From an uncultured cyanobacterium (GTDB lineage Bacteria; Cyanobacteriota; Cyanobacteriia; PCC-9006; JAAUQQ01): a stretch of 64,000 nt of DNA. Below, one piece after another: positions 6,396 to 11,146 of this stretch. The stretch covers positions 4,000,001-4,064,000 of the forward strand of contig OY970368.1 of assembly GCA_963718615.1 (NCBI GenBank). The letters run 5' to 3'. The notes below the pieces were generated by a model. The model had not been told where the DNA came from and did no database searches. It saw nothing but the letters and a program-made list of their open reading frames with translations. How positions within the stretch are numbered: position 1 is the first letter of the stretch; each line of letters starts with the position of its first letter. Made by a program: the position numbers and the translations under genes.

Positions 6396-7379
6396 ATGGT
6401 TAAGTTTCACATCCAGCCCGAGAGCGAAATTCCCGCATCCAATCAGCTCTACAACCAAATGATGTTTGCGATCGCCTCGCGCCAATATCCACCGGGGCAA
6501 AAGCTTCCCAGCACCCGGCAACTGGCCATGCAAACGGGACTGCACCGCAACACGATCAGCAAGGTTTATCGCCAGCTCGAAGACGATGGCTTGGTCGAAG
6601 CTCAAGCGGGCTCTGGTATCTACGTGCGGCAGCAGGGCGAAGACGAAGTCATCAGCCGCCGAACGCCCTTGGTGGAGCAATATCCTGAAGCCTACCGAGA
6701 CATTCGCCATGTGCTGGATACGCTGCTCAAACAGGGCTGCTCGCTCAACGAGGCGCGGGATTTATTTTTGGCGGAAATTGACTGGCGGCTACGGTGTAGC
6801 GCTCAGGTGCTCGTCACTGTTCCCCAAGAAGATCTGGGGGCAGGCCAGCTCATGGTGCAGGAACTAGAGCAGGCGCTGAATATCCCGGTGCAGCTTGTGC
6901 CCTTAGAGGAGCTAGAAATAATTTTGAATCAGACCCGCTCGGGCACCGTCGTCACCAGCCGCTATTTTATGAGTCAGGCTGAGGCGATCGCCTCTCCCAA
7001 ATCCGTCCGCGTGATTCCCGTGGATGTCTACGACTACACCAGCGAGATCCAGCTCCTCAATCAGCTCAAACCGGGGACCTGTGTGGGTATCGTCAGCCTC
7101 AGTCCAGGGTTATTGCGAGGGGCTGATGTGGTGATTCGCAGTTTGATGGGCGATCGCCTCCTGCTCATGAGCACCCAGCCCAACGACAGCTATAAGTTAC
7201 GAGCGATCGCCCGCAGTGCCTCGATTATTCTTTGCGATCGGGCCAGCTATGACACCGTTAGAACGGGTGTCCAAGCGGTCGAGCAGGATTTAATTCGTCA
7301 TCCCAAACTGGTCTGCTGCGAGAATTTCATCAGCGCCACCTCCATCAGCCTCCTGCGCCGGGAATTGGGTCTAGAGTAA
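6396..7379 (+). CDS. plmA: GntR-family transcriptional regulator PlmA
   Basis: FHIQPESEIPASNQL..LPSTRQLAMQTGLHRNTISKVYRQLE; 327 aa; divergent from the dienelactone hydrolase. Confidence 0.85.
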   Translation: MVKFHIQPESEIPASNQLYNQMMFAIASRQYPPGQKLPSTRQLAMQTGLHRNTISKVYRQLEDDGLVEAQAGSGIYVRQQGEDEVISRRTPLVEQYPEAYRDIRHVLDTLLKQGCSLNEARDLFLAEIDWRLRCSAQVLVTVPQEDLGAGQLMVQELEQALNIPVQLVPLEELEIILNQTRSGTVVTSRYFMSQAEAIASPKSVRVIPVDVYDYTSEIQLLNQLKPGTCVGIVSLSPGLLRGADVVIRSLMGDRLLLMSTQPNDSYKLRAIARSASIILCDRASYDTVRTGVQAVEQDLIRHPKLVCCENFISATSISLLRRELGLE

Positions 7380-8302: not shown

Positions 8303-8728
8303 TTAATTCATCCATCCTTGGTCAAAAGCGTAACCGCCAATCGCAGCCCATTGCTCGTAGGTTATGTTGTATTCCGCCAATAATTCATTGCGATACTTTT
8401 CAATCAGTTCAAACTTGTAGTCGCCCTGCAACTTAGACATTTTCTGAGCTTGCTCAACGCTATAGCTAGGAGCAAGTGGATCGCTAGGAATGGGATACTT
8501 AGATTCAGCCTGTTGTCCAGCTTTGCTTTCGTAAGCCTGCGTCTTGGTAAAAATTTCCCGGCGAGTGGCTTCAGGAATTGCTCCAATCAGTTGCTCTCGT
8601 TCTTGTTTTTTTGCTGTAGCGGTTGCCTCTTTCACTTGCTGAGTTTTCTTCTCAGGCGATGAGCCACAGGCGGTTAGAGTAGGGGAGAAGATGAGTAGCA
8701 GGGCAGACGTTACCATGAATCGTTTCAT
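8303..8728 (-). CDS. Hypothetical lipoprotein
   Basis: Basic N-terminus, hydrophobic stretch and lipobox LTA-C; AT-richer than neighbouring genes; no family recognised. Confidence 0.6.
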   Translation of the reverse strand: MKRFMVTSALLLIFSPTLTACGSSPEKKTQQVKEATATAKKQEREQLIGAIPEATRREIFTKTQAYESKAGQQAESKYPIPSDPLAPSYSVEQAQKMSKLQGDYKFELIEKYRNELLAEYNITYEQWAAIGGYAFDQGWMN

Positions 8729-9036
8729 TATTGTTTTTATCTTTGGGGAAAAGGGCAAAAAAAGAGAGTCTTTTACTAAGGTGTCCTACTTTTCAGTTGA
8801 CTTACACGGATAAACTTTGTCCAAGAAGAACCTTGCGACCACCATCTAGTTACGAGACTCTCGGATCTCTTGCGAGTGTAACTCACCCCAATCATTTCCA
8901 TCCACATTGACTAAATTTGCAAAAAAAATTGAAATTTTCCGGAAATTCATAACCCTTTCTCTGCAAGGGGTTTAGGCCCCCCAGGGGGCAATTGCCCCCC
9001 AGGAATGACCCCCTCAGGGATCTACCCGGTGTCGTT

Positions 9037-9063
9037 TTGAAAAAAAATTGGGCATAGTATATA
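9037..9063 (+). promoter_or_regulatory. Putative promoter (A-tract, -10 box TAGTAT at 9055-9060) for the downstream RNA candidate
   Basis: ttgaaaaaaaattgggcaTAGTATatac immediately precedes the closing stem at 9064; the spacing of TTGAAA to TAGTAT (12 nt) is non-canonical. Confidence 0.45.
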
Positions 9064-9177
9064 CAGGTTCACGCGAAGGTATCCGAAAGGGTCTTCACGT
9101 CCAGGTGTTCCCCACGTGCACAAGGGGGAGAGGAAGCTGTAGAAGAGGTGGGAGTCTGCTACAGCTTCCGGAGCCTG
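9064..9177 (+). ncRNA. Candidate structured ncRNA (four-way junction), family not recognised
   Basis: Closing stem CAGGTTC/GAGCCTG encloses three hairpins (9071-9100 with GAAA loop, 9108-9130, 9132-9169 with a perfect 11-bp stem); G-U pairs favour the + strand. Confidence 0.55.
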
Positions 9178-9178
9178 G

Positions 9179-11146
9179 TTAAGGTAAATTGGCGATCACC
9201 ACCGGCTCAATCGCTTCGGCAACCTTAAAGCCAAAGACTTTGGCATAAAAGTAAAGCTCACCATCCAGGGTTCGCTTAATATTTTCAGCCTTGCGAAAGC
9301 CGTGCTGCTCGCCAGGAAACGCTACATAGGCAACGGGCAGTCCTTTTGATTGCAAAACCTCAACCATGCGCTCGGTTTGGTTCGGCGGCACCACCTTGTC
9401 ATCCAGACCCTGGAAGAAAATGACTGGACAGGAGAGGTGCTCGGCATGGTGAATGGGCGATCGCGCCTCATACAGGGCCTTATTCTCAGGATAAGGACCC
9501 ACCAAGCTATCGAGATAGCGCGCTTCAAATTTGTGGGTGTCTTCCGCCAACGCCGTCAAGTCGCTGACGCCATAGCGGCTGGCCCCAGCTTTGAAGACGT
9601 CGTAAAACGTCAGGGCACAAAGGGTGGTGTAGCCGCCTGCGCTGCCGCCGTGGATCGTGAGGCGATCGCCATCCACATCCCCCCGTTCGACCAAATAGCG
9701 CGCGCCATTGACACAGTCTTCCACATCCGCCACGCCCCACTGGCCCTTGAGGGCATCCCGATAGGCACGACCATAGCCGGTACTGCCGCGATAGTTTACA
9801 TCTAGCACCGCAAAGCCTCGACTGGTCCAATACTGAATGCTAAGGTTCAGGCAACTCCGAGCCGCTGCGGTGGGTCCGCCGTGGCTTTTAACCAGTAGAG
9901 GCGGGCGTTCGCGATCCTGGGCCAGATAATCACGATTTTGCGGCGGATAATAAATTCCGTGGGCGACCTGGCCCCCGGTGGTAGGAAACGTAATCAGTTC
10001 CGGTCGGGAGAGATAGCCAGGGTCAAGGGTTAGCTCGCTGGAAGAATGGAGAACCGAGAGCGATCGCGTCGCCAGATCCAACTGAACAATTTCCGTCTGT
10101 CCCGTGGCCGAGCCCGCAATAAAGACAGCCCGTTCCGAATTTGCCTGCATGTCGCTGATTTCGGTATAGGGGCTCTCTAAGGTTTCGAGCTTGCCCGTAC
10201 GGGTATCAACCAGCGCCAGATACCAGATGCCATTTTGGGTATAGGTGCAGACCATTTGTTCTGCCGTCGCAAAGGCATAGGTGTCCATACAAAACACCCA
10301 GTGGGGTAGGCCAAACTCGGCGGCCATGGGGCAAAGTGCTTCCACCGCGCGACCGTTCCAGCGGTAGAAATTCCACCAGCCCATATCGCGATCGCTCACA
10401 AAATACAACTGTCCATCCGGCGACCACTTCGGCTCCACCACCGATTCCTGCGGTCCACCGGCAATGTGCTGAATATTGCCCAACGAACCATCCACCTGGA
10501 ACGTTCCCACCCAAAGATCGGCCCGGTCCCAGGGCATATCGGGATGATTCCAGCTCACCCAGGCCAGTTGGGTACCATCGGGGCTGAGGCGCGGCGCAGC
10601 ATAAAAATCATCGCCGCTCACCAAAACGGTGCCCCCTGCTTCGTCTCCCTCCCAGGAAACCGCAACTAGCGTATTAATAGGCTCTTGCTCTGCTCGGTGG
10701 TCTTCCCGAACCCCAATCCAACGCCGCCGCTTGGCATCAATTTGGCCATCGGCAAACCGCAGCGATAGCTCCGGCGTCAGGGGCTGAGGCATTTCTCCCG
10801 CTGCCAACCGATAGAGTCGCTGATCATCATTATTAGAAAAGTAGGTCACCCCTTCGTGAATCACAAAGGAACCTCCACCATATTCATGCACCCAGTTACG
10901 AACACTGAACGGGGCCGCATTCACCTCGCGTACAGATCCATCCGGACACTGATGCAACAGGACACTCCGTCCGCCCTCTGCTGGACGCATCTCCAACCAA
11001 TAGGTATCCTGAGCTTCCAGGGCCGTACCAATTAAGCTGACGGTGCTAGCGACGATCAGATCTGCGGTAATCGGAGATTTCCAAGAACCGTAGGGAGCTG
11101 CGATCGCAGGGGTCATTCGATCTGTATGCTCAAGTAGAGTCTTCAT
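9179..11146 (-). CDS. S9 family (prolyl oligopeptidase/acylaminoacyl) peptidase
   Basis: APYGSWKSPITAD N-terminus, HGGPT, GGSAGG serine motif, D..VPP, EQHGFR; the start may be 11116. Confidence 0.93.
   Translation of the reverse strand: MKTLLEHTDRMTPAIAAPYGSWKSPITADLIVASTVSLIGTALEAQDTYWLEMRPAEGGRSVLLHQCPDGSVREVNAAPFSVRNWVHEYGGGSFVIHEGVTYFSNNDDQRLYRLAAGEMPQPLTPELSLRFADGQIDAKRRRWIGVREDHRAEQEPINTLVAVSWEGDEAGGTVLVSGDDFYAAPRLSPDGTQLAWVSWNHPDMPWDRADLWVGTFQVDGSLGNIQHIAGGPQESVVEPKWSPDGQLYFVSDRDMGWWNFYRWNGRAVEALCPMAAEFGLPHWVFCMDTYAFATAEQMVCTYTQNGIWYLALVDTRTGKLETLESPYTEISDMQANSERAVFIAGSATGQTEIVQLDLATRSLSVLHSSSELTLDPGYLSRPELITFPTTGGQVAHGIYYPPQNRDYLAQDRERPPLLVKSHGGPTAAARSCLNLSIQYWTSRGFAVLDVNYRGSTGYGRAYRDALKGQWGVADVEDCVNGARYLVERGDVDGDRLTIHGGSAGGYTTLCALTFYDVFKAGASRYGVSDLTALAEDTHKFEARYLDSLVGPYPENKALYEARSPIHHAEHLSCPVIFFQGLDDKVVPPNQTERMVEVLQSKGLPVAYVAFPGEQHGFRKAENIKRTLDGELYFYAKVFGFKVAEAIEPVVIANLP

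Follow-up and report, generated by a model that had tools for sequence, protein, structure and literature searches.

Does the interval between a hydrolase gene and a convergent peptidase gene in this stretch of DNA hold an RNA gene in its own right and, if so, how might such an RNA act? The window, by which we mean the whole 64,000-nt stretch that was analysed, had been the subject of an earlier note, in which an independently transcribed RNA of ~114 nt, folded as a four-way junction, was proposed. The landmarks of that proposal are all present: CAGGTTC at 9064-9070, GAGCCTG at 9171-9177 and, between them, three hairpins, at 9071-9100 (with a GAAA loop), at 9108-9129 (TTCCCC...GGGGGA) and at 9132-9169, the last with a perfect 11-bp stem formed by GGAAGCTGTAG and CTACAGCTTCC (9132-9142/9159-9169). 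The structure so drawn ends at 9177, which is 1 nt before the stop codon of the peptidase gene (9179-9181). Here we describe the conservation, selection, fold, strand and distribution of this element, together with what we infer of its transcription start, its action in trans and its target. Comparison of related sequences shows that the following feature is genuine: a non-coding, structured element of the + strand that is under selection.

9064-9178, + strand: structured-RNA core of 115 nt, conserved over its whole length

A structured RNA was thus the right kind of object to propose, and a conserved fold with covarying homologues is found in all eight genomes of the family. We see an even chance that the element encodes a lineage-specific structured sRNA with its own promoter, which probably acts in trans by base-pairing through an invariant loop and for which clpX is the best predicted target.

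The earlier note had recognized no known RNA at this locus, and the Rfam and ARAGORN checks were both negative. Rfam 15 gave no match in the 64-kb window at gathering thresholds; at E values up to 10, the region 8750-9300 returned only four chance-level rows, the best of which scored 20.5 bits against a threshold of 58 bits and sits on a palindrome upstream of the element. Longer forms of the RNA from two relatives in genus g3, described below, likewise had no Rfam match at E up to 10, and ARAGORN listed no tRNA or tmRNA gene in 8500-9700. When the motif strings were searched for in the published literature (8.4 million papers), two unrelated neuroscience papers were the only matches.

BLASTN searches of 61 related genomes produced clear matches only within the family of the window (f1), with identities to the window element of 90% (G001), 89% (G003), 70% (G005), 68% (G002) and, for a partial match, 74% (G004). 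An exact-pattern scan of one genome per species (185,579 species) found seven loci, six of them in metagenome-assembled genomes of the same family that are labelled Synechococcales or Pseudanabaenaceae. The seventh, in a Dehalococcoidia record, is without the rest of the element and was rejected as chance; the 21 loci of a metagenome pattern scan were also attributed to chance because none has the 5' block, GGTTCAC, upstream. We then relied on a covariance model built from six of the seven sequences known at that time, the sequence of G004 having been omitted from the seed alignment because MAFFT placed its 5' end wrongly, and included again by way of the model. Applied to 151 cyanobacterial genomes, the model found one copy in each of the eight genomes of the family (E 8e-28 to 9e-8), including a copy in G006 that BLASTN had missed, and nothing credible in the other 143, four of which had matches at E 0.44-0.99. 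A search with the filters off in 23 loci (85 kb) at orthologues of the hydrolase gene in other families reached 15.4 bits at best (E 0.055), and neither BLASTN nor the model detected a paralogue in the window's own genome. By these searches the RNA family is absent from Rfam and is seen in only one cyanobacterial family among the genomes covered. As a separate observation, a genome of another family (G059) has an sRNA-like unit at L131:2290-2440 (+), upstream of and divergent from the orthologue of the hydrolase gene, in which a -10-like AGTATA is followed by CAGGCTCACC, resembling the 5' block, and then by a 16-bp hairpin, a linker containing GGGAG and a strong terminator. This unit scores 14.4 bits with the model and is a candidate homologue only.

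Conservation of the element exceeds that of its surroundings. In the two flanking genes, four-fold degenerate sites have identities of 0.51-0.55 between the genome of the window (G000) and G001 and of 0.24-0.47 between G000 and genus g3, values that are close to saturation. Over the same comparisons the element is 90% (G001) and ~70% (68-74%, g3) identical, with long invariant blocks; being far more identical than the four-fold sites, this intergenic DNA is under purifying selection. Coding potential does not explain this, and a 44-aa ORF at 9048-9182 was rejected: the core is 108, 113, 115, 116 or 149 nt long among relatives, and because the differences, which lie in hairpin 1, are not divisible by 3, there is no conserved reading frame.

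The element lies 3' of a Lactamase_B_3 (MBL-fold) hydrolase gene and 5' of a convergent Peptidase_S9 gene, an arrangement present at all seven loci tested with Pfam, and it shares the strand of the MBL gene in all eight genomes. In the window the convergent ORF (9179-11146, - strand) encodes the Peptidase_S9 protein, and the last conserved strand of the element, GCCUGG at 9173-9178, adjoins its stop codon. The hairpin at 9132-9169 could on this account have been simply the terminator of the peptidase gene, a case that the earlier note had itself raised. We rejected this identity: it is the whole 115 nt that is conserved, not this hairpin alone, and in relatives the element is far from the peptidase stop (~235-260 nt in G001 and G003), the ORF tables giving distances that differ widely. 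The terminator scan found no T-run on the - strand after this hairpin and, in G005, the peptidase gene has a terminator-like hairpin of its own beside its stop, distinct from the terminator of the RNA.

The distance from the MBL gene to the element is 876 nt in the window and 128-328 nt in relatives, with values of 128-158 nt in genus g3. In this genome only, a 141-aa lipoprotein ORF (8303-8758, - strand) is situated between the MBL gene and the RNA; read from an internal Met, it has a lipoprotein-type signal peptide and an L-T-A-C lipobox, and its product had no Pfam match. This ORF and the RNA diverge, so 8760-9050 may be a control region common to both. Directly 5' of the MBL-hydrolase gene there is a gene for a GntR-family regulator (6396-7379, + strand). 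Two tandem repeat arrays were seen downstream of the RNA in G003 (L064:1640-1760 and L106:2918-2990): units of ~16 nt of the type GATTTTCGTTTCGATA and, immediately ahead of the 3' end of the peptidase gene, an 18-nt unit, CAGGTTCTCGAGGATTTA, present four times. CAGGTTC occurs both in the CAGGTTCTCGAGGATTTA repeats and in the 5' block of the RNA.

The conserved fold consists of the following parts.

9064-9073, + strand: 5' tail CAGGUUCACG, identical in seven of the eight genomes (CAGA in G006) and unpaired in the RNAalifold consensus
9071-9100, + strand: hairpin 1, with 10 pairs, 88.9% of cells paired and 2 pairs changed on both sides
9101-9106, + strand: 5' strand of the closing helix, CCAGGU, with 6 pairs and 100% of cells paired in all eight genomes
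9108-9129, + strand: hairpin 2, UUCCCC...GGGGGA, with 3 modelled pairs, 100% paired, 1 of them changed on both sides
9132-9169, + strand: hairpin 3, with an 11-bp stem and 8 modelled pairs, 96.9% paired, 4 of them with compensatory changes on both sides
9145-9157, + strand: invariant 13-nt loop GAGGUGGGAGUCU, at the apex of hairpin 3 and identical in all eight genomes
9173-9178, + strand: 3' strand of the closing helix, GCCUGG, partner of 9101-9106

In the RNAalifold consensus of six sequences, CAGGUUCA is unpaired and CCAGGU pairs with GCCUGG, forming a helix that encloses hairpins 2 and 3 and leaves hairpin 1 outside. When this consensus structure was placed on the model-based alignment of eight sequences, 95.5% of 224 cells were paired; slid controls gave 34-51%. 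Seven pairs have changed on both sides, a number that rests on few independent events because there are only about four lineages among the eight genomes. The covariation score was 0.259 as against 0.187 in shuffles, and none of 500 shuffles reached the observed value. Conservation of hairpin 1 is confined to its base, the upper part being variable and expandable: a 68-nt insertion in G004 folds as one long hairpin, and the GAAA loop, to which the earlier note had given weight as a GNRA loop, is present in the window but is kept in only three of the eight genomes (G000, G001 and G003), the g3 genomes having other loops. Hairpin 2 is seen in every single-sequence fold and always has GCAC in its loop. 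There is no double change in the closing helix, where a C-G pair becomes U-G in G006 and a U-G pair alternates with U-A.

The fold of minimum free energy (MFE) for the + strand of the window (9064-9177, RNAfold) is -50.5 kcal/mol with a z score of -3.79, a value equalled by none of 200 dinucleotide shuffles, and its topology is exactly the four-way junction described previously. In that fold the tail, 9064-9073, would pair with 9171-9177. It is possible, therefore, that the four-way junction is the functional form, or that the RNA switches between four-way and three-way junctions, the single CCUGG at 9174-9178 having a choice of partners: the CAGG at the 5' end, the CCAGG inside the element and, in genus g3, CCAG/CCGG further downstream. 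All of these partner words are conserved, and the four-way (A-type) closure is the MFE in four of seven single sequences. Constrained folding from a start at C9064 puts the two closures within 0-3.7 kcal/mol of each other in the eight genomes, with the four-way closure better in three, the alternative better in four and one tie; from a start at G9066, the three-way closure is better in all eight. Conservation favours the latter closure as well. Only 78.6% of cells are paired in the four-way closing helix (9064-9070/9171-9177), compared with 100% in its competitor; its pairs 6 and 7 fail in four and seven of the eight genomes, respectively, so that only four to five of seven pairs are general, and in G006 a G-to-A change breaks it with an A.C mismatch, whereas the competing helix is kept there through a U-G pair. 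From its inferred start to its terminator, the RNA of G005 is 189 nt long, with a z score of -4.66, and has an extra downstream hairpin that competes for CCUGG; in genus g3 the MFE at full length favours this hairpin. Weighing conservation and these folding models, we read the conserved architecture as a 5' tail, hairpin 1 and a three-way junction, with the four-way junction as a possible alternative state; that the latter is the functional fold, or one arm of a switch, strikes us as unlikely.

A stable fold does not identify the strand. The - strand, at -43.8 kcal/mol (z -3.92), folds unusually well too, and so the single sequence from which the earlier note had argued for the + strand does not settle the matter. 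The relatives give an answer. There are 29 G-U cells and 5 A-C cells in the alignment of eight sequences, and 95.5% of cells pair on the + strand as against 84.8% on the - strand; because G-U cells outnumber A-C cells, we assign the element to the + strand, and this part of the earlier claim stands. The same data bear on the idea that the conserved feature acts only as DNA, whether as clustered sites for protein binding or as a genomic signal of another sort, without a functional RNA. Both the good fold of the - strand and the CCWGG-type and G/C palindromes, which read alike on the two strands, would fit such an element. But compensatory changes in three helices preserve pairing rather than sequence, the G-U pairs favour one strand and the 68-nt stem expansion in G004 is typical of RNA, and we regard this explanation as very improbable.

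Upstream of the core, three features deserve attention.

8977-9019, + strand: C-run/G-run palindrome array, which includes a perfect 16-nt palindrome at 8984-8999
9016-9027, + strand: inverted repeat AGGG-N4-ACCC, invariant in all eight genomes and centred ~43-44 nt 5' of the inferred start
9053-9058, + strand: -10-like hexamer CATAGT (CAnAnT in the family), with A2, A4 and T6, its most important positions, invariant in all eight genomes

The -10 box proposed by the earlier note, TAGTAT, is found at 9055-9060 and ends 3 nt 5' of the stem. A promoter at this place is plausible: an alignment of the upstream 125 nt from eight genomes has an invariant GCA.A.T, so the invariant CAnAnT lies 2 nt upstream of the proposed box, whereas T6 of the TAGTAT frame is present in seven of the eight genomes. 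With either frame, the start is predicted at about 9065-9068, inside the 5' strand of the four-way closing helix; for the CATAGT frame we place it at about 9065 (the A of CAGG; range 9064-9068). The -35 region is weak in all eight genomes, and a strict sigma-70 scan of 8600-9400 listed no promoter; in G005, the strict promoter scan detected TTGTGA-16-TATATT. A promoter dedicated to the RNA is plausible from the sequences. AGGG-N4-ACCC is the only upstream G/C element found in all eight genomes and could serve as an operator or as the site of an activator. Seven genomes, all but G004, have an upstream G5/C5 (or G4/C4) hairpin, the loop of which varies; the palindrome array 8977-9019 may act as DNA, in regulation, or as RNA, in a leader hairpin. 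We rejected the notion that the G/C palindromes are a genome-wide repeat, as their frequencies equal the shuffled expectation; other palindrome "clusters" in the 6.1-Mb genome are overlapping counts of single sites, and there is no other true cluster.

The length of ~114 nt must count as provisional. Each of the five g3 genomes has, 3' of the core, a 7-bp hairpin, then a 13-bp hairpin and a T-run, giving ~185 nt in total. The 13-bp terminator hairpin is present in all five, with 100% of its cells paired, four compensatory pairs (in G004) and one G-U pair (in G002). An automatic terminator scan listed this hairpin on the - strand only; we read it on the + strand because a T-run follows it, because it has a G-U pair and because the peptidase gene has a terminator of its own further downstream. 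The scan of the window found neither a terminator nor a T-run beyond the core, and G001 likewise has no terminator there; the one in G003 is weak and ~185 nt downstream. In the window, a transcript could therefore possibly read through, antisense to the peptidase 3' end. Taken together, the G-U pairs, the CAnAnT hexamer and the covarying intrinsic terminator of genus g3 support a transcription unit on the + strand.

It is also possible that the element acts in cis, as a structured 3' untranslated region or a stability or termination module of the mRNA of the upstream MBL hydrolase or, in the window, through a read-through transcript antisense to the 3' end of the peptidase gene. The element is on the strand of the MBL gene in every genome, only 128-158 nt downstream of it in genus g3, and the scan of G005 found no + strand terminator between the two; in the window, the core stops 1 nt short of the peptidase stop without a terminator of its own. 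Against this, the window has retained both the element and its -10-like box even though an opposite-strand lipoprotein gene and 876 nt intervene, and an invariant A2/A4/T6 hexamer is hard to explain within an untranslated region. The antisense overlap is not conserved either, as the distance to the peptidase stop varies so widely. We consider action in cis distinctly unlikely.

The invariant 13-nt loop can be read in two ways. One is as a ligand: the RNA would be a decoy or scaffold that presents its purine-rich loop and the repeated words UUCACG and CAGGU to a protein and acts by sequestration, one version being mimicry of a ribosome-binding site or of a segment of 23S rRNA. The RNA has more structure than is usual for an sRNA that acts by base-pairing (z -3.8 for the window element and -4.7 for the 189-nt form of G005), UUCACG and CAGGU each occur twice in six of the eight genomes, and the loop contains the Shine-Dalgarno-like GAGGUG. 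Eleven loop nucleotides are identical to nt 1047-1057 of 23S rRNA (as located by the Rfam LSU match), a segment which we take to lie near the base of the GTPase-associated centre, and the identity extends to all three rrn copies of the genome itself (L134, L135 and L136). However, this match does not co-vary: the 23S rRNA of G004 differs at one position and the loop is unchanged. Furthermore, AAGGAGGTGGG, which makes up most of the matched segment, is shared by 17 of the 20 cyanobacterial 23S genes that were compared, some of them from genomes where the RNA was not found, and the 11-mer has a BLAST E value of 0.30. From these comparisons, the 23S match of the loop is probably due to chance. 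Nor is there a linked partner gene, the neighbours being a hydrolase and a peptidase. A protein-binding role seems to us, on the whole, improbable.

The other and preferred reading is that the loop is an antisense seed. The RNA would be transcribed from its own promoter (CATAGT, 9053-9058), starting near A9065, and would consist of a single-stranded 5' tail, AGGUUCACG, a hairpin of variable length and a three-way junction, closed by CCAGGU/GCCUGG, that holds a small hairpin and a long hairpin exposing the loop. The loop would then act as a seed for base-pairing in trans, and pairing with codons 5-8 of clpX would hinder the initiation of translation. What recommends the loop is that it is identical in all eight genomes, apical in a covarying stem and predicted to be accessible. 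The 5' tail was also considered as a seed and rejected, as its best complements, of 12 and 11 nt, are inside coding regions and at start codons there are two 10-mers only.

The longest perfect complement to the loop in its own genome is 12 nt long and covers codons 5-8 of clpX, a gene that lies outside the window (C1:440062-441408, - strand). In a target scan of 9,558 windows, each spanning -50 to +40 at the first start codon of an ORF of 100 aa or more, the clpX window ranked first, with -26.6 kcal/mol as compared with -22.2 for the next (mean -11.9, standard deviation 2.5). When the loop was shuffled without change of composition, 1,981 of 20,000 sequences also had a perfect 12-mer in the start windows, and the clpX match is therefore not significant (p ~0.1). 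The 12-nt site is kept in seven of the eight family genomes, the exception, G001, having one end change that is uncompensated in the loop. None of 21 other cyanobacteria has the site; 19 of these have CAT in place of CAC, which can still form a G-U pair. We also observed that the initial codons of clpX (K-Y-D-S-H-L) hardly vary at synonymous positions among 29 cyanobacterial genomes of 24 families (L074-L103). This points to a constraint at the nucleotide level at the start of clpX, whatever its cause; since the codons are conserved in cyanobacteria not found to carry the RNA, their conservation is not due to the RNA. Given the modelled pairing and its background, clpX is a possible but doubtful target.

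A more specific mechanism may be envisaged. clpX is downstream of clpP, in the same transcript direction, and an undescribed RNA confined to one family, whose Shine-Dalgarno-like loop pairs with clpX codons 5-8, could uncouple the synthesis of ClpX from that of ClpP, with the choice of partner for CCUGG serving as a conformational switch. We think this combination rather unlikely. A literature search on clpX and small RNAs in cyanobacteria found no such case among the top-ranked matches.

To our knowledge, no regulatory RNA has been described for this family, which is represented mostly by metagenome-assembled genomes. This branch of the cyanobacteria has been little studied, and the element would give it a well-defined family of structured RNAs for which the comparative evidence is clear. 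It is compact, with a predicted promoter, a core of ~115 nt and an invariant 13-nt loop, and leads to sharp predictions about the start, the fold and the target. If the link with clpX is true, this would be an sRNA connected to the Clp protease machinery; if it is false, the element would be one more lineage-specific sRNA candidate, which is a common outcome.

How does the candidate compare with known systems? It is like an intrinsic terminator of the peptidase gene in that its hairpin 9132-9169 is 10 nt from the peptidase stop in the window, and unlike one in that it is conserved beyond the hairpin, has no T-run on the - strand and is far from the stop in relatives. Ribosomal-protein leaders are regulatory RNA sites that mimic rRNA, and 11 of 13 loop nucleotides of the candidate are those of a 23S segment; unlike such leaders, the candidate is not upstream of a ribosomal protein gene, does not co-vary with the 23S rRNA of G004 and has a match that is within chance. 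With 6S RNA, the architecture of which is a long helix with a central bubble, it shares a strong conserved secondary structure, a single copy and a transcription unit of its own, here inferred, but it has a junction architecture and no match to the Rfam model of 6S RNA. Closer parallels are offered by the trans-acting sRNAs of cyanobacteria, such as Yfr1, PsrR1/SyR1, IsaR1 and NsiR4. Yfr1 is reported from all cyanobacterial lineages (PMC2190773), in contrast to the candidate, which was found in one family only (eight of eight genomes) and not in the 143 other cyanobacteria searched. Although it is more elaborately folded than the trans-acting sRNAs, with a three-way junction, and is without an Rfam match, the candidate resembles them in being a small, single-copy, intergenic non-coding gene with a conserved unpaired motif flanked by hairpins, a -10-like box and, in genus g3, an intrinsic terminator.
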